Source of the DNA: a bacterium
GTDB taxonomy: Bacteria; Patescibacteriota; Minisyncoccia; Minisyncoccales; CG1-02-41-26
Direction of reading: 5' to 3'
DNA length: 64,000 bases
Assembly: GCA_030619905.1 (NCBI GenBank)
Contig: JAUXAO010000002.1
Coordinates: 65,193 to 129,192, forward strand
Part shown: positions 1,897-46,260 of the stretch, one piece after another
How the letters are laid out: every line of letters starts with the position of its first letter
Numbering within the stretch: the stretch's first letter is position 1
The notes under the pieces: generated by a model
What the model was told of the DNA's origin: nothing
The model's input: the letters and a program-made list of their open reading frames with translations, nothing else
The model's database searches: none
Translations under genes and position numbers: made by a program

Positions 1897-2739
1897 ATGT
1901 CAAAAGTTCTTTCACAAAAATCAGATTTAGGATTGAAGAACTATAATGATGTTCTTCCCTCTATTTCACCGCAAGAGCAGAAAAAGTTATTTCAGAAAAT
2001 GGAAAGATATCCCAAGAATAATCTGGAAATAAGAAATGAAATTGTAGAGAAAAACATGGGGTTAATTGATTTTTGGGCAAGGAAGATAAAAAGATCATAT
2101 CCAATTTCTAGTTTGGAGTTTAAAGATATTTATCAAGCAGGAGCTATAGGGTTAATGAGGGCAGTAGATAGATTTAAATGGAGAAAGGGGTACAGATTTT
2201 CCACTTTTGCTATCCACTGGATAAATCAGGCGATGACAAAGACTATTAATAACCAGTCAAATACTATCTCTATTCCTGTTCACAAGACAGAGATAATTAT
2301 TCAATATAAACGGACAAAGAAAGAACTTTGTCAGGAATTGGGACGTTCCCCTTCAATCCAAGAAATTGCGATAAGAATGGATGTTAATATAGCAAAGATT
2401 AATCACTTAGATGAAATCAGAAACCCGCTTTCTTTAGAAATACCGTTTCCTGGAGAAAATGAAAGCAATACTTTAATTGATGTTATAGAAGACAAAAAGA
2501 TAATCCATCCTTTAGTAAGATTAGAAAGAGAAGATTTAAGGAAAGAATTAACAAAAGCTTTATTTTACTTGGATTCAAGAGAGAGAAAAATTTTGATTCT
2601 GCGGTTTGGGTTAAAAAATGGGAAAAGATACACACTAGAAAAGGTGGGAAAAATTATAGGAGGCATTAGTGATGAGAGAGTTCGACAAATTGAGGTGGTA
2701 GCTCTTAGGAAGATCAGAAAAATTCTTGAATCTAAATAG
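1897..2739 (+). CDS. RNA polymerase sigma-70 family factor
   Basis: Region 2 is IYQAGAIGLMRAVDRFKW..FSTFAIHWINQAM. The region 4 HTH is YTLEKVGKIIGGISDERVRQIE. ATG 1897 lies 7 nt after AAGGAGG, whereas the track start 1888 is a GTG inside the SD. Confidence 0.85.
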   Translation: MSKVLSQKSDLGLKNYNDVLPSISPQEQKKLFQKMERYPKNNLEIRNEIVEKNMGLIDFWARKIKRSYPISSLEFKDIYQAGAIGLMRAVDRFKWRKGYRFSTFAIHWINQAMTKTINNQSNTISIPVHKTEIIIQYKRTKKELCQELGRSPSIQEIAIRMDVNIAKINHLDEIRNPLSLEIPFPGENESNTLIDVIEDKKIIHPLVRLEREDLRKELTKALFYLDSRERKILILRFGLKNGKRYTLEKVGKIIGGISDERVRQIEVVALRKIRKILESK

Positions 2740-2805
2740 GCACTTGTTATTCAATAAAGAATAAGAGTGCCTTCTTTTTTTTTCTGATGATGATAAAATG
2801 AAAGA

Positions 2806-3684
2806 ATGAAGGAGGTTTATCTTTATAAAAAACTATCCAATCATAAAGTTCAATGCCAAAATTGTGCTCATTACTGTATTATTGAACATGAAAAAAGAGG
2901 CAAATGTGGCGTGAAAGAAAACAAGAAAGGTAAACTATATTCTTTGGTTTACGGAAAGATTGTTGCTTTAAACATTGATCCCATTGAGAAAAAACCTTTT
3001 TATCATTTTTTACCAGGAACTAATTCTTTATCGCTTGCCACTGTAGGATGTAATTTTAAATGTCTTAATTGTCAGAATTATGGTATTTCCCAAATGCCTC
3101 AGGAAACAGGTCAAATTTTAGGGAAAGATTTAACTCCTGAAAAAATAGTAGAAGTTGCTCTTGAGAATAATTTGCCAAGCATTTCTTATACCTATACAGA
3201 ACCAGCCATTTTTTCTGAATATGCTTTGGATATAATGAAATTAGCCAGGAAAAAGGGATTAAAAAACATTTGGGTTAGCAATGGATTTTGGTCAAAAGAA
3301 CTTTTTGATTTAATTTTTCCTTATTTGGACGCGGTTAATATTGATTTAAAAAGCTCTGAGAATGGTTTCTATGTAAAATATTGCGGAGGAAAATTAAAAC
3401 CAGTTCTAGACACTTTGAAAAGATTAAAAGATAAAAAGATTTGGATTGAGGTTACTACTTTAATTATTCCGGGTTTAAATGATAAAGAAAAAATATTTAA
3501 GGGTATTGCTAATTTTATTAAGAATAAACTAGGTAAAGAAACTCCCTGGCATATCAGTAGATTTTCTGGAGCAATCTCTTGGAAATTTCAAGATTTTCCT
3601 GATACGCCTATTGGAACTTTAAAAAAAGCACAAGAAGTTGGTAAAAAAGCCGGTTTAAAATATATTTATATCGGCAATATCTAA
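2806..3684 (+). CDS. amrS: AmmeMemoRadiSam system radical SAM enzyme
   Basis: Radical-SAM motif CNFKCLNCQNY plus an N-terminal Cys cluster (CQNCAHYC..CGV). It is followed directly by Memo-like and AMMECR1 genes. Confidence 0.8.
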   Translation: MKEVYLYKKLSNHKVQCQNCAHYCIIEHEKRGKCGVKENKKGKLYSLVYGKIVALNIDPIEKKPFYHFLPGTNSLSLATVGCNFKCLNCQNYGISQMPQETGQILGKDLTPEKIVEVALENNLPSISYTYTEPAIFSEYALDIMKLARKKGLKNIWVSNGFWSKELFDLIFPYLDAVNIDLKSSENGFYVKYCGGKLKPVLDTLKRLKDKKIWIEVTTLIIPGLNDKEKIFKGIANFIKNKLGKETPWHISRFSGAISWKFQDFPDTPIGTLKKAQEVGKKAGLKYIYIGNI

Positions 3685-3687
3685 TTT

Positions 3688-4302
3688 ATGATTAAATTTG
3701 CCTCAATTTCTCCTCATCCTCCAATACTTCTTCCTTCTGTAGGTTCAGAACAAGACCGTTTGAAGTTAAAAAAAACAATCGAAAGTTTAGAGTATTTGGC
3801 TAAAAGTTTTAAAAAAGCAAACCCTGATTGTTTGATAATTTCTTCTCCACATCCTGATTGGGGTTTTAAGGTTCCTTTATATTTTATAGCCAATGATTTT
3901 AAAGGTGAAATTGAGTATTTTTTAACTGAGCTTGACCCACCGAAATTTTATTTTGATAAAGGCAAACAATTTTATCTAAATTTAGAAAAAAACAAATCTT
4001 ATGGCTTAATAGCTTCAGGGGATCTCTCTCACTGTTTGAAAGAAGACGGTCCTTATGGATTTTATCCTGATGGGCCAAAATTCGATAAATATTTAATCAA
4101 ATATTTAAAAGAAAAAGATATAGAGAATTTCTTAAAATTGGATAAAATGTTTCCTGAAGCTGGCGAGTGCGGTCTTCGTTCCTTTTCTTTTCTCTTAGGA
4201 ATATTAGAAGAATCAAAACTTGATTGGCAGCCGGAAATTCTTTCTTATCAAGGGCCATTTGGAGTTGGATATCTCGTTGCTTCAATTCAAATCAAAAACT
4301 AA
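3688..4302 (+). CDS. amrB: Memo/LigB-fold protein, AmmeMemoRadiSam system protein B-like (short, 204 aa)
   Basis: N-terminus ISPHPPILLPSVG is typical of class III extradiol dioxygenase/Memo-like proteins. The position between amrS and AMMECR1 supports the call. It is shorter than typical Memo proteins. Confidence 0.5.
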   Translation: MIKFASISPHPPILLPSVGSEQDRLKLKKTIESLEYLAKSFKKANPDCLIISSPHPDWGFKVPLYFIANDFKGEIEYFLTELDPPKFYFDKGKQFYLNLEKNKSYGLIASGDLSHCLKEDGPYGFYPDGPKFDKYLIKYLKEKDIENFLKLDKMFPEAGECGLRSFSFLLGILEESKLDWQPEILSYQGPFGVGYLVASIQIKN

Positions 4303-4835
4303 TGAAAAATTATACAAACCCGTATATTTCACTTGCAAAATCAGCAGTAGAAACTTATATTAATAAAAGGAAGGTTATTAAGGTACCAGATGGCTTACCA
4401 GAGAAAATTACAAGCAAAAAAGCAGGCACTTTTGTAACTATCAAGAAAAATGGAGATTTAAGAGGATGTATAGGCACTTATTTACCAACAAAAAAGAGTA
4501 TTGCTGAGGAGATAATTCAAAATGCTATTACTGCGGCCACTGAAGATTATCGTTTCGGACCGGTTCAAAAACAAGAACTCCCCTATCTCACTTATAGTGT
4601 TTATATCTTAGAAAAACCAGAATTAGTGAAAGATACAAAAGAATTAAACCCTAAGAAATACGGCATTATTATTAAAACTCTTAACCATCCTTTAAAATCC
4701 GCGCTTTTACTTCCTGACTTAGATGGGATAAACACGGTGGAACAGCAGATTTCAGTAACTTGCCAAAAAGGAGGAATTGACCCTTCAAAAGAAAAAACAG
4801 TTATTTATAAGTTTAAAGTAAAAGAACATAGTTGA
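4303..4835 (+). CDS. amrA: AMMECR1 domain protein (AmmeMemoRadiSam system protein A)
   Basis: Carries the LRGCIGT hallmark motif. ATG 4303 immediately follows the upstream stop. The track start 4224 overlaps the upstream gene in another frame. Confidence 0.8.
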
Positions 4836-4859
4836 TTAAACTCTTTAATTCTCAAATTA

Positions 4860-5534
4860 ATGCTTAATAAAAAAATTGTTAAAATATTATACGGGATAGA
4901 AGAATTATTAAAGATAAAAGGAGAAGGGATACCCTATAAACCAAAGGCATATTCTAAAGCGGCTTTGAGTTTGGAAAATTTAGAACAAGATGTTTCTTTT
5001 ATATATAAAAAAGACGGGCTGAAAGGCCTTGAAAAGATTTCTGGCGTGGGTAAAAGCATTGCTAAAAAAATTGAAGAGTATATAAAAAAAGGTAGAATTA
5101 ATTATTATGAAAAATTAAAAGAAGAAACTGCTATTCGTCAGATTGTGACCCATTATTTTAAAACTAAAGGATTAAATCTAGATCAGATAAAAAAAGATGC
5201 TAAAAAAAGAAAGATAATTTATTCAAGATTTACCAGACCAGCAAAACAACTTCTGGAATTGGCTGGTTCAGTTCAAGCAGCCAAAAAAGCCATTAATAAG
5301 GTAGCCGAATGGGCAAAATCAAGAAATCTGGATTACGCTATTGAAACAGTTTTTAAGAAATGGCTGGAACTTGATAGGTTAAAGCCTAAAGAAATCGTTA
5401 AAAAGCCCTTCTATGATGAAGAGCCGATGGTGTGGTCTCAAACCCGTAGAAAATGGTATGTAATTTCAAGAGATGGAGAGTGGCTGGAATTTGTAGGAGA
5501 GGAAAGAGAAATAAAATGGCGAATTATTAAATAA
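4860..5534 (+). CDS. helix-hairpin-helix protein with a Pol X-like N-terminal domain and an unknown C-terminal domain
   Basis: N-terminal ~90 aa (YKPKAYSKAALSLENL..ISGVGKSIAKKIEEYIKKGRINYYEKL) resembles the 8-kDa/HhH module of family X polymerases. No polymerase palm motifs follow. Confidence 0.4.
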   Translation: MLNKKIVKILYGIEELLKIKGEGIPYKPKAYSKAALSLENLEQDVSFIYKKDGLKGLEKISGVGKSIAKKIEEYIKKGRINYYEKLKEETAIRQIVTHYFKTKGLNLDQIKKDAKKRKIIYSRFTRPAKQLLELAGSVQAAKKAINKVAEWAKSRNLDYAIETVFKKWLELDRLKPKEIVKKPFYDEEPMVWSQTRRKWYVISRDGEWLEFVGEEREIKWRIIK

Positions 5535-5540
5535 CCTAAA

Positions 5541-5816
5541 TTATTTTGTAATTTTGATTGCTTTGCCCTCTATTAAGGCCTGGGCAATTTTTTTTCTGGC
5601 TGAAATCAATATTCGACCCAAAGTACTTTGAGAAATTTTCATTTTTTTAGCTGCTTTGGTCTGATCTAAATTTCTTAGATCACAAAGCCGAATAGCTTCT
5701 AATTCATCCACAGCCAAACCTACCTCTTCCAGTACTGAAAGAGGTATACCCCTCGGTTTAAAGTATGTAACATTTGGGTCAAAATAGACTCGCCTTGGTT
5801 TTATTGGTCGAACCAT
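5541..5816 (-). CDS. DUF134 (UPF0251) small DNA-binding protein
   Basis: MVRPIKPRRV..FKPRGIP...DELEAIRLCDL...MKISQSTLGRILISARKKIAQALIEGKAIKI matches the DUF134 pattern. Confidence 0.75.
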   Translation of the reverse strand: MVRPIKPRRVYFDPNVTYFKPRGIPLSVLEEVGLAVDELEAIRLCDLRNLDQTKAAKKMKISQSTLGRILISARKKIAQALIEGKAIKITK

Positions 5817-5827
5817 ATTTAGATATT

Positions 5828-6397
5828 TTAAAATCCTAATTCTTCTGAAATACTTTGCATTGCTAATAAAACGATTTTAATAAAATCTTCTAATTTTAAA
5901 TTTAAGAATTCCTCACATTTAATGATTATTTCCCGGTTGGCTCCTCGAGCAAAAGCCTTTTCTTTAAAACGATTTAGAATATTCTCAGTTTTTAAATCCC
6001 CTATTTTCTTTGATGGCAATACTAAAGTAGCTGCAACAATTAAACCAGTTAAAGGGTCAATACAATACAAAGCCTTTGCCATTAAACTTTGAGGTTTAAT
6101 ATTATGAGATTCATTATGAGTCAAGACAGCTTGGTAAATTTGTTCATCGAATCCTAAATCTTTCAGCATTTCGCTTCCAATCTTTGAGTGCAGATTTGGA
6201 TCCCCTTTTGTTTTCTCGTAGTCAATATCATGTAGAAGTCCGCAGATTCCCCACTCTTCATGGTCTTGTTTAAAATATTTAGCTAATTCCTTCATAGACA
6301 TCTCAACTGCTAAGCAATGTTTAACTAAATTCTGGTTTTTTAGGTTTTCTTTTAACAAATTTAATGCTTCTTCTCTTTTCATATTATTTTTATTCAA
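5828..6397 (-). CDS. HD/HDIG domain phosphohydrolase
   Basis: H..HD metal-binding pattern (VKHCLAVE..GLLHDIDYEK). Confidence 0.75.
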   Translation of the reverse strand: MNKNNMKREEALNLLKENLKNQNLVKHCLAVEMSMKELAKYFKQDHEEWGICGLLHDIDYEKTKGDPNLHSKIGSEMLKDLGFDEQIYQAVLTHNESHNIKPQSLMAKALYCIDPLTGLIVAATLVLPSKKIGDLKTENILNRFKEKAFARGANREIIIKCEEFLNLKLEDFIKIVLLAMQSISEELGF

Positions 6398-6990
6398 TAT
6401 TTGAATTTTTCTAAGATTTTAAAATCCTTTTTTAAAATCTCTTTCATATTTAGATTATAAGTTACTGTAGCCGGGTGGTAAAGAGGGATTAAGAATATTC
6501 CCGGCAAAACCGTTTTTGTTTTAAACACTTTTCCATGGATTTTGCCAATTGGCTCAATCTCATTTTCTAATCCGAATTTTTCCATTAAAAACTGCATAGA
6601 ATACCTTCCTAATGGACAAATAATTTCTGGCTTAATTATTTTAATCTGTCTTTCTAAATAAGAACAACAAGCCTCAATTTCTTCTTTCTGAGGATCACGA
6701 TTATTTGGTGGCTTACATTTGAGGATATTGGAAATATAAACGTTTTCTCTTTTTATATTAACCGATTTTAAAAGTTCATCCAGAATTTTCCCGGCCGCTC
6801 CACAAAAGGGGCGACCGGTTTTATCTTCCTGAGCTCCAGGTGCTTCTCCTATAAACATTATTTTAGTTTTATGATTCCCCTCTCCGATTACAGGATAATT
6901 TCTGCTTTTGTATAAAAGACATTTTTGACATTTCAGAACCTCTTCTTTAATTTCTTTGAGTTTGTCGTCTCTGTTTTTAAGTATTTCCAT
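6394..6990 (-). CDS. uracil-DNA glycosylase, family 4
   Basis: Motifs GEAPGAQED and GRPFCGAAG, plus an N-terminal CxxC. It overlaps the HD gene by 4 nt. Confidence 0.85.
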   Translation of the reverse strand: MEILKNRDDKLKEIKEEVLKCQKCLLYKSRNYPVIGEGNHKTKIMFIGEAPGAQEDKTGRPFCGAAGKILDELLKSVNIKRENVYISNILKCKPPNNRDPQKEEIEACCSYLERQIKIIKPEIICPLGRYSMQFLMEKFGLENEIEPIGKIHGKVFKTKTVLPGIFLIPLYHPATVTYNLNMKEILKKDFKILEKFKY

Positions 6991-7003
6991 ATTTCTGATA
7001 ATT

Positions 7004-7210
7004 TTATCTTTCTCGGGTCATAGAATTACCACATTTAGGACATTTAACTCCATAACAAGGCACTGCTCTCTTGTGAGGTACTTTTTCTCCACATTGAGGG
7101 CATACACAAAAACCTCCGGGCCCTAAACCAAAACCTCCTGGTTGACGACCTCTACCACGTCCTACTATTGGACCTTGACCGGTTGGACCGGTTCCATTTC
7201 TTCTTGGCAT
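7004..7210 (-). CDS. DUF5320-like protein with a C-terminal zinc ribbon
   Basis: The Gly/Arg-rich N-terminus MPRRNGTGPTGQGPIVGRGRG is typical of DUF5320. Two CxxC pairs follow (CPQCG, CPKCG). Confidence 0.6.
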   Translation of the reverse strand: MPRRNGTGPTGQGPIVGRGRGRQPGGFGLGPGGFCVCPQCGEKVPHKRAVPCYGVKCPKCGNSMTRER

Positions 7211-7261
7211 ATTATTTATTATATATTATTTTTTATAAACTATCGACTTTTCTGTTTTAAG

Positions 7262-7289
7262 TATATACCCATAACTATATGTCTGTCAA
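7262..7289 (-). promoter_or_regulatory. sigma-70-type promoter for the 7210-5541 operon
   Basis: Minus strand reads TTGACA (7289-7284), a 16-nt spacer, then TATATA (7267-7262). Confidence 0.45.
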
Positions 7290-7305
7290 CCCCTAAGTAA
7301 TATAA

Positions 7306-7338
7306 ACCAAAAGACCGAGAAAAATCTCGGCCTTTTTT
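7306..7338 (-). terminator. intrinsic terminator after the 7339 gene
   Basis: Minus strand reads GGCCGAGA-TTTT-TCTCGGTC followed by TTTTGGTTT. The plus strand also carries a T-run, so it may be bidirectional. Confidence 0.5.
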
Positions 7339-7596
7339 TTATAATTCTCCCGATAACTCCAACAAACGAATTTTTGTTTTATCTTCTCGTTCTATATATA
7401 TTTTTTGGCACCTATGCTCCTTATCTCCTTCAATGGCATACTTAATGTTCTCATCTTCCAATCTTTCGATAAATTTCATAATGGAACTAGTTGTCTCACC
7501 CCAGCGAAATAATTTAAGAAATATCGGTTTTTTAAGTTTTCCTATCTCAATTTCATTTTTGAATATTCCGCCTTTTTCTTCTCTAAAATTTTTCAT
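7339..7596 (-). CDS. hypothetical protein (85 aa)
   Basis: ORF track. Its start overlaps the upstream stop by 4 nt (ATGA). I recognise no family. Confidence 0.5.
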   Translation of the reverse strand: MKNFREEKGGIFKNEIEIGKLKKPIFLKLFRWGETTSSIMKFIERLEDENIKYAIEGDKEHRCQKIYIEREDKTKIRLLELSGEL

Positions 7597-7838
7597 ATCC
7601 CTTTTATCTTCTCCTCTCTGTAATATTCTCTATTGAGCAGCCATTCAAGAAGTTTTCCGCTTCCTTCCTTTATCTCTTTATTAAATAGCCATCTGAGAAC
7701 TTCTTCTTCCAAATTTTTTGGTATTACTGTTATTAAATCCGGGTCTTGCCGGATCATCAATTGTTTCTTTTTCTTATTGTATACCGCAGTTATTCCCTTA
7801 CCGAGGTCAAGGATTTCTTTCCACTTTTTCTTTTTCAT
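7593..7838 (-). CDS. hypothetical protein (81 aa, Lys-rich N-terminus)
   Basis: ORF track. SD AAAGGAG lies upstream of the ATG. I recognise no family. Confidence 0.5.
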   Translation of the reverse strand: MKKKKWKEILDLGKGITAVYNKKKKQLMIRQDPDLITVIPKNLEEEVLRWLFNKEIKEGSGKLLEWLLNREYYREEKIKGI

Positions 7839-7873
7839 TTTTTTCTCCTTTCTTAAAAATTATTAACTAAAAA

Positions 7874-7978
7874 CTATGTTGTACGCCACATAAAGAAAAC
7901 AGACAGGATAATTATAAAAAATAAAACAATATGTAAAACTTCTTCCGAGGACAACCAGTTCAATAAATTTCTCATCAT
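7874..7978 (-). CDS. possible 34-aa single-TM peptide
   Basis: Own translation: MMRNLLNWLSSEEVLHIVLFFIIILSVFFMWRTT. A G-rich SD (AAGGGGG) lies just upstream. It is the first ORF of the transcript from the 8036-8064 promoter. Confidence 0.3.
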   Translation of the reverse strand: MMRNLLNWLSSEEVLHIVLFFIIILSVFFMWRTT

Positions 7979-8035
7979 CCATTCCCCCTTTTTATTTTCC
8001 TCCTTTTTATTAACGAGCTAGTTAGAACATTCCAA

Positions 8036-8064
8036 ATTATAGCACATTAATTATTATTAGTCAA
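8036..8064 (-). promoter_or_regulatory. strong sigma-70-type promoter
   Basis: Minus strand reads TTGACT (8064-8059), a 17-nt spacer, then TATAAT (8041-8036) preceded by a TGc extended -10. Confidence 0.6.
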
Positions 8065-8084
8065 TATATTTTCAACTAGTATAT

Positions 8085-8116
8085 AAAAAAAAGACTCAGC
8101 ATCGCTGAGCCTTTTT
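8085..8116 (-). terminator. intrinsic terminator after the 8139 gene
   Basis: Minus strand reads GGCTCAGC-GAT-GCTGAGTC followed by a T-run. Confidence 0.55.
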
Positions 8117-8138
8117 AAATTATTAAGCTTGAGATAAA

Positions 8139-8645
8139 TCAAAAAAAGATAACAATCCTTTGTATGAAATTGTCGCCTAACCATAAATTTTGGAAAAGAC
8201 TAACAGTTTGTTCGTTTACTTGTTCGTCTACTGTAATGTCTAATTCCTTAATAGTGAATGCAAGTTCAAATTTTTTCTTATTGTTCCAGCACATAGTTAT
8301 TTTTAATATTTCGTTTTCGTTTTCGATTTCTATTTTTTCGAAGTTAGCATCCATTTGACTATAATATCTTATGTAAGACGCCTTCTTTCCTCTTAGTTTT
8401 TCTTTTTTCTTAATAATTAATCCTAACAATCCCATACAATTATCACTCTTAGCAGCCATTTCCTTATTTTTTACCCTTTCATCAATAATAACTTTCTCCA
8501 AACTGTTCATCTTAAGGCATTTCCAACAAGAATCTGTAGTTAAATAACGGCAAGTTTTTTTTCCTTGCTCCGCCTTGCAGATTTCCATTACATGTTTGTT
8601 TGTCGGAAACTCTGAAAAAACCTTAAAAGGTTCTACTTCTGCCAT
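8139..8645 (-). CDS. hypothetical Cys-containing protein
   Basis: ORF track 8139..8663. I prefer ATG 8645, which is preceded by GGGAG. It contains C..C..CxxC. I recognise no family. Confidence 0.5.
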   Translation of the reverse strand: MAEVEPFKVFSEFPTNKHVMEICKAEQGKKTCRYLTTDSCWKCLKMNSLEKVIIDERVKNKEMAAKSDNCMGLLGLIIKKKEKLRGKKASYIRYYSQMDANFEKIEIENENEILKITMCWNNKKKFELAFTIKELDITVDEQVNEQTVSLFQNLWLGDNFIQRIVIFF

Positions 8646-8850
8646 TTTTTTCTCCCTTCTCATTTCACTTTTTTTAAATTTCCATTAAAATACACAATAC
8701 CAAAAGCCATACTAAAGAAATTTTGACATTATTCTTTTTACCTCACTTTCTTTTTTTAAAGGTCTATAATGAAAAATCTTTAATTATAGGATATTTTTAT
8801 AGAATATTATATGATAAAATATATTTTCTCAATAATCAATCTCAAATTCT

Positions 8851-9249
8851 CTAAAATTTAATTAAAGATTTTACTTTCTCTACTATCGTTAAAAGTTCTT
8901 CAGGGCTAGCCTTTTTTGCTCTGTTTGGATCAAGGTCATTTACTTTATTAACTGGGACAAGATGGATATGAATATGAGGAATAACAAAACCTTCAATAGC
9001 CAGAGCAACTCGTTTTGCTCCCGTAGCCTTTTTCAAAGATTCTGATAATTTCTTAGCTGTTCTAAAAATCTCTGAATATAATGGTTCTTCCAAGTAAAAG
9101 ATATAATCTAAATGCTTCTTGGGAACAAGAATCGTATGGCCGGGATTAATCGGGTTAATATCCAAAAAGGCAAAGAAATTTTCATCTTCCCAAATCTTAT
9201 AACTCGGAATTTCCCCTTTTATTATTTTACAAAATAAACAATCTTCCAT
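8851..9249 (-). CDS. HIT (histidine triad) family protein
   Basis: Histidine-triad motif HIHIHLVP and an N-terminal CxxC. Confidence 0.85.
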   Translation of the reverse strand: MEDCLFCKIIKGEIPSYKIWEDENFFAFLDINPINPGHTILVPKKHLDYIFYLEEPLYSEIFRTAKKLSESLKKATGAKRVALAIEGFVIPHIHIHLVPVNKVNDLDPNRAKKASPEELLTIVEKVKSLIKF

Positions 9250-9367
9250 AATTACATCTTTATCTATTTTACTTTATTTTTTCTTAAAATAAAAACAAAA
9301 GAAAAAAGCGGGTATTGGTAAAAACCTTATTGGCAGAAAATCCCCGCTCTTTTTTAAAAAAAATCAT

Positions 9368-9625
9368 TCATTCAACAATGACTAATAATACCCTATTTGG
9401 AAACTTCCATGATTGCCCCGTTTTGATATCTTTCAGTAAAGTACCTCTTCTAAGGTATTCAAGCAAAAAACCTTTTCCCGACGATTCTTCTTGAAATGGA
9501 ATTTTGTCTTCGGTGTACGGGACAGAAACCCTTGAAATCCCATAGATTCCAGTCTCTTCCTTTACCTTATTAGGAAACACAAATTTGTTTCCTAATCCAA
9601 CCTTATTCAATCTTATCATCCTCAT
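9368..9625 (-). CDS. hypothetical protein (85 aa)
   Basis: ORF track. AGGAGG lies 9 nt before the ATG, and the gene has its own promoter at 9688-9716. Confidence 0.5.
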   Translation of the reverse strand: MRMIRLNKVGLGNKFVFPNKVKEETGIYGISRVSVPYTEDKIPFQEESSGKGFLLEYLRRGTLLKDIKTGQSWKFPNRVLLVIVE

Positions 9626-9687
9626 TTTTAAAGACCTCCTAATTTTTATTTCCTAATTTTTATCAATATCATTAGCATTATACCTGT

Positions 9688-37156: not shown

Positions 37157-37185
37157 ATTATAGATTATCTATTCAAAAATGTCAA
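37157..37185 (-). promoter_or_regulatory. sigma-70-type promoter for the 37123 gene
   Basis: Minus strand reads TTGACA (37185-37180), a 17-nt spacer, then TATAAT (37162-37157). Confidence 0.55.
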
Positions 37186-43304: not shown

Positions 43305-43644
43305 TTATTTTTAATAATCTGATTCCAATAACTGCTAATTTTTCACCTCCCATAAACAAAATTATAGCAAAAATTGACCAACTCATTAAATTAAAGAGTT
43401 TAATCAGAAATTCAGGGGGGAACATTTCTTGAAACTGTTCTTTGATTATTTGCTGTATTTCTTCTTGCGTTTCTGTTTCAATACTCCCTCCTTCTTTTTT
43501 CAAAGAAACATCTTGAGTTGTTGAAAGTTTAAAAATCTCATAAACCGGTCTTTGGGCAGTAAAAATCTCAAAAGAAGTCCAAATTACCCAGATTATTATT
43601 AAAACCCCTATTACTAAGAGAACCCAGCCAAATATTTTTTTCAT
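43297..43644 (-). CDS. hypothetical two-TM membrane protein
   Basis: ORF track. It overlaps the AAA+ gene start by 8 nt. Confidence 0.5.
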   Translation of the reverse strand: MKKIFGWVLLVIGVLIIIWVIWTSFEIFTAQRPVYEIFKLSTTQDVSLKKEGGSIETETQEEIQQIIKEQFQEMFPPEFLIKLFNLMSWSIFAIILFMGGEKLAVIGIRLLKIND

Positions 43645-43720
43645 AATCCTATAAATTACGAATATTTACAGATTACACATAGTGTAAATTTAACCTTTAT
43701 TTAATTTTACCATTTTCAAC

Positions 43721-43968
43721 AAAAAAGGAAAAGGAGAGGAGGAGGAAATCTTTTGATTTCAGAATGAAACTAATAAGTTAGTTTCAAAACTGAAAAGATT
43801 TCTCCCGACTCTCCTTTAGGTCATATATGAAATATGACTTGTTAAACTTGTTAATGTGCTATTGATAATCCTTTTCCCAAAATTACCTGAGCCCCAGTTC
43901 CATTTAAGAGATTACTCTTTTAGGAACTGGGAAAGACTATCAGGAAAGATACCTCTCTTTATCCTTCC
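43721..43968 (-). ncRNA. candidate ~248-nt structured non-coding RNA or leader of unknown class
   Basis: It lies between a consensus promoter (43975-44003) and a U-tract (43721-43726). Hand-found helices are GGAAGGATA/TATCTTTCC, CCCAGTTCC/GGAACTGGG (with nested AAGAG/CTCTT), GTCATAT/ATATGAC, and a ~40-bp terminal hairpin AAGGAGAG..GGAG.AAATCTTTT / AAAAGATTT.CCTCC..CTCTCCTT. It has no ORF longer than 6 codons. Confidence 0.5.
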
Positions 43969-43974
43969 ATCTAT

Positions 43975-44003
43975 ATTATAACAAAGTAATTTGTCTCTGT
44001 CAA
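43975..44003 (-). promoter_or_regulatory. consensus sigma-70 promoter
   Basis: Minus strand reads TTGACA (44003-43998), a 17-nt spacer, then TATAAT (43980-43975). Confidence 0.65.
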
Positions 44004-44048
44004 GCCAAATAGGATTAGATTTGGATTAGAGAACCACAATAATATCTG

Positions 44049-44120
44049 TGGGCAATGCAGGATTTGAACCTGCGACCTTCCGCATGTGAAGCGGACACTC
44101 TACCACTGAGCTAATTGCCC
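44049..44120 (-). tRNA. tRNA-Val (anticodon CAC)
   Basis: Hand-folded cloverleaf: GGGCAAT/ATTGCCC acceptor, D arm GCTC-AGTGGTA-GAGT, anticodon arm TCCGC-TTCACAT-GCGGA, T arm GCAGG-TTCAAAT-CCTGC, discriminator A. Confidence 0.85.
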
Positions 44121-44186
44121 ATATTTTTATTTTATCATTTTTGTGCTTATAATAGAATAGATAATAGATAAAACGTTTAAGTAATT

Positions 44187-46118: not shown

Positions 46119-46231
46119 ATTAATTAAAAAAACTGTGGTTTCCCACAGACAATAGTTTTGGTAACTAAATTAATCCTGAGTAGGATTTAACCCCGCATAT
46201 TTGCAGGAACCTACTGTCTATGGATATTGCA
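46119..46231 (-). promoter_or_regulatory. rplJ leader with terminator-type attenuator (L10-leader-like)
   Basis: 113-nt 5' UTR with an AGTAGG...CCTACT helix. A CTGTGG-GAAA-CCACAG hairpin plus T7 sits directly before the rplJ ATG. The position matches known L10 leaders. Confidence 0.45.
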
Positions 46232-46260
46232 ATCTTAATTTATTATTAAAGTCTTGTCAA
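46232..46260 (-). promoter_or_regulatory. sigma-70-type promoter for rplJL
   Basis: Minus strand reads TTGACA (46260-46255), a 17-nt spacer, then TAAGAT (46237-46232). Confidence 0.5.

Follow-up and report, generated by a model that had tools for sequence, protein, structure and literature searches.

What is the short, structured transcript without coding capacity that appears to lie between a transfer RNA (tRNA) gene and a membrane-protein operon in a Parcubacterium? The locus sits on the minus strand of contig JAUXAO010000002.1 (positions 65,193 to 129,192; this whole 64,000-nt stretch is called the window), and its predicted RNA of ~247 nt begins with a G at ~43968 and ends with a T-run at 43721. 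The original prediction for this DNA had described a non-coding transcript 3′ of tRNA-Val, running from a perfect TTGACA-17-TATAAT promoter to a terminator, and both the transcript and the promoter, which scores 12 of 12 against the consensus, are borne out. The further statement that no open reading frame (ORF) exceeds six codons holds for ATG starts in the sense direction, a TTG start giving nine codons. Our answer to the question is that the element is probably, at about 0.55, a stand-alone non-coding RNA gene, born by an internal deletion that took the coding portion out of a small-protein cassette, named here after its reading frame, ORF A.

The ORF A cassette and the element in the window

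In related Parcubacteria the cassette, as read from its sequence, consists of a consensus promoter, a structured 5′ leader, a ribosome-binding site (RBS) with an ORF A of ~72 amino acids (aa), and a 3′ region of ~270 nt. The window matches only the two ends of this layout. Positions 43967-43852 match the leader profile (nhmmer, E = 1.8e-29) and positions 43825-43722 match positions 166-274 of the 275 in the 3′-element profile (E = 3e-23), and neither profile has another match in the 64 kb. The promoter, a leader made of hairpin H1 and a three-way junction, and a 3′ end made of hairpin H3 and a long terminal hairpin with a U-tract are all there. The RBS AGGAGGTGA and ORF A are missing (no ORF longer than nine codons; tblastn finds nothing in the window), and so is the first domain of the 3′ region, a multi-branch structure of ~130 nt (GGGAGAAGGCAAGG...CCUCCCUUCUCCC), the profile match beginning only at position 166. 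The element therefore reads as a cassette that has lost these three parts, and the window RNA would be the 5′ untranslated region (UTR) of a small-protein gene, intact in relatives, fused to the end of its 3′ UTR. The junction lies in a 24-nt linker, the position at which relatives carry 400-560 inserted nucleotides, ORF included. The complete cassette is found again at unrelated loci, which makes a deletion in the window lineage a far more parsimonious explanation than an ORF inserted repeatedly.

ORF A is, judged by its homologues, a genuine small-protein family. One search gave 19 clusters at 63-100% identity, and at the 50% level 75 clusters were found among 1.8 billion representatives, nearly all of them 65-100 aa long and stand-alone; the proteins of two loci discussed below, L017 and L019, are 54% identical. 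The AlphaFold model has three helices (pLDDT 83). Searches for a function gave nothing significant in Pfam, PHROGs, PADLOC, NCBIfam, the PDB sequence profile or Foldseek against the PDB, and the longer homologues contain no informative fused domains. ORF A is accompanied by the 3′ region in at least five genomic settings that have nothing in common. It follows a PaaX_M gene in one, lies between MurL and MurD in another and stands beside an HTH_38 gene in a third; elsewhere it comes after two small ORFs adjacent to a different tRNA gene, or is found at tRNA-Val with DUF6922/AbiEii behind it.

A promoter of the type TTGACA-17-(TGn)TATAAT precedes nearly every copy with enough upstream sequence (L017-21, L068, L070, L079-L082, L205, L206), with one-base variants of the −10 hexamer in L077 and L082. 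The 3′ region runs in the order domain 1, variable H3, long hairpin and U-tract. Domain 1 is closed by GGGAGAAGG/CCUUCUCCC and shows compensatory changes in its inner hairpins, and the sequence of the long hairpin is kept across contexts in which ORF A is only 63-83% identical to the L017 allele; L079 is an exception, a short terminator replacing the long hairpin. The complete leader is found in the window, L080b, L081 and L203. A homology search followed by covariation analysis, a check proposed with the original prediction, came out in favour of a conserved structure: among five homologues of the 5′ domain (H1 and junction) 94.4% of the cells are paired, a share that drops to 58% or less once the partners are slid, seven pairs are altered on both sides, and the covariation score is 0.323 against 0.244 for shuffled alignments, a value that none of 500 shuffles reached.

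Some copies of the cassette show peculiarities of their own. In L206 (344-613) and L207 (410-679) the 89-aa protein P0012 is without the usual ORF A stop codon, and its translation would enter 3′ domain 1 and end at a UAA inside the conserved GGGUAAUUG. The cassette has among its neighbours genes of accessory or defence type, such as DUF6922 and AbiEii in L082 (791-1662), and, in L080 (223-883), two small ORFs that adjoin a tRNA. Such neighbours are consistent with a cassette that lives in variable regions near tRNA genes. The leader pattern had no match in viral contigs. The pattern for the terminator arm gave at least 120 chance matches there, being too unspecific, and none of the matches listed fits the profiles.

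The orthologous locus was followed with the 904-aa ClpB-like protein encoded by the downstream operon as query, which recovered 16 genome loci and 51 metagenome loci, all of Patescibacteria/Parcubacteria. In L017, L019 and L021, whose ClpB-like proteins are 80% identical to that of the window, the full cassette is present: promoter, H1, hairpin 2a of the junction, RBS AGGAGGTGA, an ORF A of 72-75 aa, ~130 nt of extra structure, H3 and the long hairpin. The window has promoter, leader, H3 and long hairpin. L001 and L030 have only the long hairpin, the U-tract and the sequence AAAATGGTAAAAT that follows it, and L027 has a short hairpin and TGATAAAAT between tRNA-Val and the membrane ORF with which the operon begins. 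In L022-L026 and L028 that ORF begins 13-15 nt after tRNA-Val, with neither hairpin nor promoter, which implies a joint tRNA-mRNA transcript; no obvious Shine-Dalgarno sequence precedes the membrane ORF in these loci (e.g. L022 2636-2655).

L020 has the same flanks as the L017 group, and two unrelated small ORFs replace ORF A. These (L020 538-895) encode 53 and 71 aa, each with an RBS AGGAGGTGA, and are flanked on one side by the same promoter and a truncated leader and on the other by the same closing stem of the 3′ region, H3 and terminator. Exchangeable small genes are thus hosted by the UTR frame.

Fold and conservation of the ORF-less RNA

The predicted RNA is far more stable than expected for its composition. 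It has a minimum free energy (MFE) of −90.8 kcal/mol (z = −7.4), a stability that 200 shuffled sequences all failed to reach, so that a comparison which could have spoken against the original prediction supports it. Both halves are significantly stable alone (5′ half, z = −6.6; 3′ half, z = −8.4). When the strands were compared, the minus strand gave −87.6 and the plus strand −77.9 kcal/mol, and the plus-strand fold loses H1, the outer stem of the junction and hairpin 2b. MFE and centroid structures both consist of four independent domains, the ends of the RNA remaining unpaired with each other. The prediction of at least four clean helices is thereby confirmed, these being H1, the three-way junction, H3 and an 88-nt hairpin. 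The last had been described as a terminal hairpin of ~40 bp with a U-tract; hairpin and U-tract stand, and the length is corrected to ~35 bp with interruptions.

H1 is likely a 5′-terminal stabiliser stem-loop; four of its nine pairs are altered on both sides across five homologues. The junction comprises an outer stem and hairpins 2a and 2b, of which 2b is weakened in the window by wobble pairs. The internal loop of 2a (5′-CC UAAA AG / CU UAAAU GG-3′) may resemble an expanded 11-nt GAAA-tetraloop receptor (CCUAAG/UAUGG). H3 varies in length and is nevertheless found in every full-length copy of the cassette examined. The long hairpin, with its 3′ arm ...CCUCCUCCUCUCC followed by UUUUCCUUUUUU, has compensatory changes in the middle stem and at the tip and is kept in 9-10 homologues. 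A stem-loop directly before a U-tract has the form of an intrinsic terminator, and a simple consensus scanner did not call this one because it exceeds the scanner's limits for loop and stem size. The hairpin is thus predicted to be an intrinsic terminator, common to most copies of the cassette, that should end transcription at ~43722.

The promoter is equally well formed. The spacer ends in TGT, with a TG two bases before the −10 hexamer, and 44 bases separate TTGACA from the end of tRNA-Val. Three perfect TTGACA-N17-TATAAT sites occur in the window against 0.04 expected; the genome has a G+C content of 32%. A second perfect site, at 37185, lies directly 5′ of a protein gene, and looser consensus sites are found 5′ of RBS-like sequences, which indicates that this type of promoter is in use here. 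The hexamers are identical in the window, L017-L021 and L208, and the spacers differ. No further copy of the RNA was found within the window by pattern and profile searches. An antisense coding role, for a 41-codon GTG ORF on the plus strand, was rejected since 1-nt indels break that ORF in L208.

Is the ORF-less RNA maintained, or is it merely what a recent deletion left behind? A closer relative, found through the membrane protein, bears on this point. The loci L208/L209/L210 share 88% (membrane protein) and 92% (ClpB-like protein) aa identity with the window, and L208 has the same ORF-less gene with the same junction: TTGACA-17-TATAAT, H1, the three-way junction, a linker (AAUAGCAC...UUUAACAA) homologous to that of the window, a longer H3, the long hairpin with its U-tract, and AAAATGGTAAAAT. 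The ORF-less form being common to both, the deletion predates their split. At the four-fold degenerate sites of four flanking genes the two genomes agree at 380 of 476 positions (79.8%), and in the RNA at 220 of 245 (89.8%; Fisher p = 7e-4). Over ~41 nt, hairpin 2a is free of substitutions, with a single additional loop base; at the rate of the four-fold sites such invariance has a probability of the order of 1e-5 to 1e-4 (1.3e-5 computed for 50 nt). The 82 base pairs of the window RNA comprise 67 that are unchanged in L208, 10 with a one-sided change that still pair, one with a two-sided change that still pairs and four that are broken, so that 11 of the 15 changed pairs are kept; the three differences in H1 all preserve pairing. 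The fold architecture is the same in both RNAs (−87.6 kcal/mol in the window, −90.1 in L208). Conservation above the neutral rate and structure-preserving changes in the ORF-less state, the marks of a functional non-coding RNA, were both found on this one pair of alleles. The conservation of the RNA above the four-fold sites, the invariance of 2a and the retention of pairing argue for a maintained gene rather than fresh debris.

Between the window and the full cassette locus of L017, which is more distant, four-fold sites are 52% identical, the 2a region of the leader 87%, and H3 with the terminator 91.5%. In L081 and L203 C-G pairs are replaced by U-G pairs, which keeps the pairing of the RNA and breaks the symmetry of the DNA, and the constraint accordingly acts on RNA. 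A reading of hairpin 2a as a DNA palindrome or operator was rejected on the same replacements.

The explanation that competes best holds the RNA to be a non-functional relic of a fairly recent ORF deletion, whose promoter, UTR pieces and terminator would look intact only for want of time to decay. No part would then still be required except, at most, the terminator and the promoter downstream of it. The loci form a series of decay, from the full cassette (L017/19/21) through the ORF-less form (window, L208) and the hairpin alone (L001/L030) to the short hairpin (L027) and nothing (L022-26, L028), and the RNA codes for nothing. Several observations weigh against a maintained gene. L001/L030 and L027 demonstrate that the locus can decay further, to the terminator alone; two of the four broken pairs fall in hairpin 2b, already weakened in the window; and ORF A was found neither in the 64-kb window nor in the 20 kb of L208. 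The selection test is a single pairwise comparison, since no more than two distinct ORF-less alleles came to light, and four-fold sites are an imperfect neutral proxy for it; recent recombination or transfer between the lineages is a possible cause of raised identity in the RNA, and promoter and terminator function alone account for part of the conservation. Start site, termination and abundance are all predicted. A relic should nonetheless have drifted since the split, some 20% of divergence at four-fold sites ago, and the excess of identity, the unchanged 2a, the 11 retained pairs and promoter hexamers that stayed perfect while their spacers diverged speak otherwise. We consider a relic unlikely.

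How a maintained RNA might act can be sketched from its parts. Transcription would start at ~43968 from the intact, near-consensus sigma-70 promoter and give an RNA composed of the complete structured leader, a short linker with no predicted structure and the two final hairpins of the cassette 3′ region, and the 88-nt hairpin with its U-tract would terminate it at ~43722. The RNA would still be made and used, and would be abundant and stable. Its functional part would be hairpin 2a with the three-way junction, most likely serving as a platform for a protein, possibly ORF A or a partner of ORF A encoded elsewhere. It would act in trans as a decoy or regulator, neither by base pairing nor as a leader, and the terminator would in addition insulate the membrane/ClpB-like operon, which would start from an extended −10 promoter of its own.

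The strand GGUUCC-UAAAAGAGUAAU of hairpin 2a resembles GGUUCC-UAAAAGGGUAAUUG in 3′ domain 1 of the full cassettes, and the two copies vary in parallel between genomes: the window and L017 have UAAAAG where L081 has UGAAAG/GUGAAAG. Such parallel variation suggests that one factor, possibly ORF A, recognises both. In genomes without the ORF one may hypothesise that the RNA is a decoy for this factor. A search for a regulon of motifs like hairpin 2a in the window found none beyond chance. A bolder version, which we put forward tentatively and think more doubtful than probable, is that the ORF A messenger RNA (mRNA) is itself a dual-function RNA, that a GGUUCC-UAAAAGRGUAAU module, present in hairpin 2a and the junction and recurring in 3′ domain 1, binds a protein or ligand, and that the ORF-less RNA was kept as a trans-acting regulator sequestering that protein.

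The downstream operon and its promoter

The features of the locus are collected in Table 1.

Table 1. Predicted features of the tRNA-Val/operon locus in the order of transcription, with positions numbered in the window
Feature	Position	Strand	Basis or remark
Promoter of tRNA-Val, extended −10 TGATAAAAT	44137-44129	minus	9 nt before tRNA-Val
tRNA-Val(CAC)	44120-44048	minus	Rfam 75.1 bits, ARAGORN; upstream neighbour, outside the RNA
RNA-gene promoter	44003-43975	minus	TTGACA 44003-43998, 17-nt spacer, TATAAT 43980-43975
H1, 9-bp hairpin at predicted 5′ end	43968-43943	minus	folds
Three-way junction domain	43942-43863	minus	fold; structure common to L080b, L081, L203, L208
Outer stem of three-way junction	43942-43932 with 43873-43863	minus	fold
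Hairpin 2a, UAAA/UAAAU internal loop	43931-43893	minus	fold
Hairpin 2b	43891-43876	minus	fold
Unstructured 24-nt linker AUAGCACAUUAACAAGUUUAACAA	43862-43839	minus	no fold predicted
H3, 7-bp hairpin	43838-43820	minus	homologous to penultimate hairpin of cassette 3′ region
Long interrupted hairpin, 88 nt, ~35 bp	43817-43730	minus	−36.6 kcal/mol, z = −6.5
T-run after long hairpin	43733-43721	minus	intrinsic terminator
Operon promoter AAAATGGTAAAAT, extended −10 box TGGTAAAAT at 43712-43704	43716-43704	minus	directly after T-run
Operon	43644-40590	minus	ORFs
115-aa membrane protein	43644-43297	minus	ORF
904-aa N-terminally membrane-anchored ClpB-like AAA+ protein	43304-40590	minus	Pfam AAA_2, ClpB_D2-small, AAA_lid_9

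The position of the RNA before the operon raises the possibility that it belongs to the operon as a cis-acting leader, in which a strong promoter, a three-way junction as sensor and a conditional terminator would control read-through into the membrane/ClpB-like genes. The original prediction had offered a riboswitch or attenuator of this kind as an alternative, having seen no obvious second promoter before the gene at 43644. Such a promoter exists in the form of the extended −10 box TGGTAAAAT directly behind the terminator. The box is invariant in every relative with the long hairpin (L001, L017, L019-L021 and L208, besides the window), a variant, TGATAAAAT, takes its position in L027, and it is of the same type as the box before tRNA-Val, which is itself kept at the same position across the clade. 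Relatives with the hairpin all have a promoter after it, and in those without a hairpin the operon abuts the tRNA with no promoter between. That terminator and fresh promoter occur together argues for genuine termination at the hairpin and for an operon transcribed from a promoter of its own.

Only ~75 nt lie between the end of the terminator and the start codon at 43644; pyrimidine-rich CUUUCC segments of the leader might in principle draw the terminator's purine-rich 5′ arm into a competing pairing; and in L208 the RNA gene has stayed beside the operon with tRNA-Val 7.7 kb away. All three would suit a leader. Against it, the same leader and terminator flank ORF A before unrelated genes (MurD, AbiEii and others), the orthologous operons of L022-L026 and L028 run directly off tRNA-Val without the element, no known riboswitch class matches, and MFE and centroid structures agree on formation of the terminator, with no alternative fold in either. 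The operon's own conserved promoter and the occurrence of the cassette before unrelated genes make a dedicated riboswitch or attenuator improbable.

The origin of the operon promoter can be guessed at. The 13-mer AAAATGRTAAAAT occurs exactly twice in the window (44141-44129 and 43716-43704) against 0.12 occurrences expected. As its copies stand before tRNA-Val and after the terminator, the downstream promoter may have arisen as a duplicate of the tRNA promoter when the terminator arrived. The two copies bracket tRNA-Val and the RNA gene.

Some further observations concern the same intergenic space. In L208 a 7.7-kb insertion (1966-9638), not present in the window, separates tRNA-Val from the RNA gene; it encodes a 1760-aa protein with A2M/Big_5/Hint domains, a Memo-like protein and a third protein of 317 aa. 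In L019 (1897-2125) and L021 (938-1181) the extended −10 promoter is separated from the membrane ORF by an inserted GC-rich, conserved sequence of ~230 nt (..CCCCAGCACCAAUUUUGCGAGG..), which is also recorded at the start of L018 and in L072 (646-799). A related copy in L070 (838-991) follows an ORF A cassette and lies 5′ of, or overlaps, a called MurD-like gene. The sequence has no Rfam match at E ≤ 1 and is absent from the window; it could represent a mobile insert or a further structured RNA. An exact look-up of the 115-aa membrane protein sequence returned no record.

The weakest alternative is a small RNA (sRNA) that acts in trans by base pairing, its linker or a loop being the seed against mRNAs: the layout is the classic one, with hairpins and 24 unstructured nucleotides between a dedicated promoter and an intrinsic terminator, and we hold it very improbable as the linker is the part least conserved against L208 (several substitutions and indels of 7, 4 and 1 nt) and the helices are the most conserved. 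Invariant helices and internal loops with a variable linker fit the binding of a protein or ligand better than pairing by a seed.

Known RNA families and the meaning of the locus

The RNA belongs to no catalogued family that could be found. At gathering level Rfam 15 detects only tRNAs in the window and nothing else within 43600-44150, and at E ≤ 10 the only matches in this interval are chance ones below threshold, miRNA-like or hairpin-like, that fall on the long hairpin. There was no match of the window RNA to 6S RNA, RNase P RNA, signal recognition particle (SRP) RNA, transfer-messenger RNA (tmRNA), a riboswitch, a T-box or a ribosomal-protein leader, and ARAGORN found no tmRNA. The covariance-model check proposed at the outset thus found no known family, in keeping with the original prediction, which had recognised no signatures of RNase P RNA, SRP RNA or tmRNA. 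A weak match of hairpin 2a to TMV_UPD-PK3 (15.7 bits in the window, 21.7 in L081, against a gathering score of 34) is probably due to chance. The full-length relatives gave no Rfam match for the cassette RNA either; over the window, these relatives and the GC-rich insert, Rfam found only tRNAs and, in two relatives, the L10 leader (RF00557; L022 425-545 and L027 353-471). In the window this leader was not detected at gathering level at ~46119-46260, upstream of the L10 gene (46118-45588).

The original prediction had suggested a 6S-like or lineage-specific sRNA, and it is the second half that survives, as a lineage-specific non-coding transcript. 6S RNA (RF00013) is likewise a structured bacterial RNA of ~200-250 nt running from promoter to terminator, but it was rejected, as no covariance-model match was found at E ≤ 10 and the fold is a string of independent domains rather than a rod with a central bubble. 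A MITE, a REP element and an integron attC site were rejected as well: there is no second copy in the 64 kb, and the base of the long hairpin reads AAAGGAGAG...CUCUCCUUU, without the attC-type cores RYYYAAC...GTTRRRY.

In function, the closest parallels are dual-function (coding and regulatory) RNAs and UTR-derived sRNAs. Certain dual-function RNAs have lost their ORF in some lineages, as in SgrS without sgrT. The present locus is of this type in that a small-protein transcript in some genomes has as its counterpart, in related ones, a conserved ORF-free RNA with promoter, structured parts and terminator. It differs in that a clean internal deletion, rather than loss of the ORF by point mutation, joined the 5′ UTR to the last part of the 3′ UTR, in having no similarity of sequence or structure to SgrS or RNAIII and no Rfam match, and in coming from an uncultivated Parcubacterium. 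Known UTR-derived sRNAs, whether 3′-UTR sRNAs that use the terminator of the mRNA or RNAs derived from riboswitches or 5′ UTRs, coexist with their parent ORF and arise by processing or from internal promoters. The window RNA is likewise built wholly of former UTR, with the promoter and terminator of the parent gene, but at its locus the ORF is physically gone and the two UTRs are joined. Its parts have precedents too. The hairpin directly before the U-tract at the 3′ end is that of an intrinsic terminator, although unusually long at 88 nt and conserved in sequence across contexts, and H1 begins at +1 to +3, like the 5′ stabiliser of the ompA type.

To our knowledge the regulatory RNAs of Patescibacteria (the Candidate Phyla Radiation, CPR) are almost unexplored. 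The genomes of these bacteria are tiny, and one would not expect them to retain a non-coding gene of ~280 bp, perfect promoter included, for nothing. As far as its relatives allow us to judge, the element is probably a small non-coding RNA gene specific to its lineage and restricted to a narrow clade, whose origin from an mRNA is unusually well documented. A more general lesson is that structured transcripts running from promoter to terminator should be compared with orthologous loci before they are called sRNAs.

The locus would add to the catalogue a new family of structured RNA, made of a 5′ three-way junction and a 3′ element and tied to a new family of small proteins, and the ORF A protein and the hairpin 2a motif form a testable pair of partners. 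The series of alleles, from the full cassette through the ORF-less RNA and the terminator alone to the empty site, documents a route from mRNA to non-coding RNA gene. Should the RNA prove inert, it would still be a clean case of the decay of a cassette next to a tRNA gene; should the dual-function proposal be true, it would represent a new class of regulatory RNA in the CPR, caught as an mRNA turned into a non-coding RNA gene.

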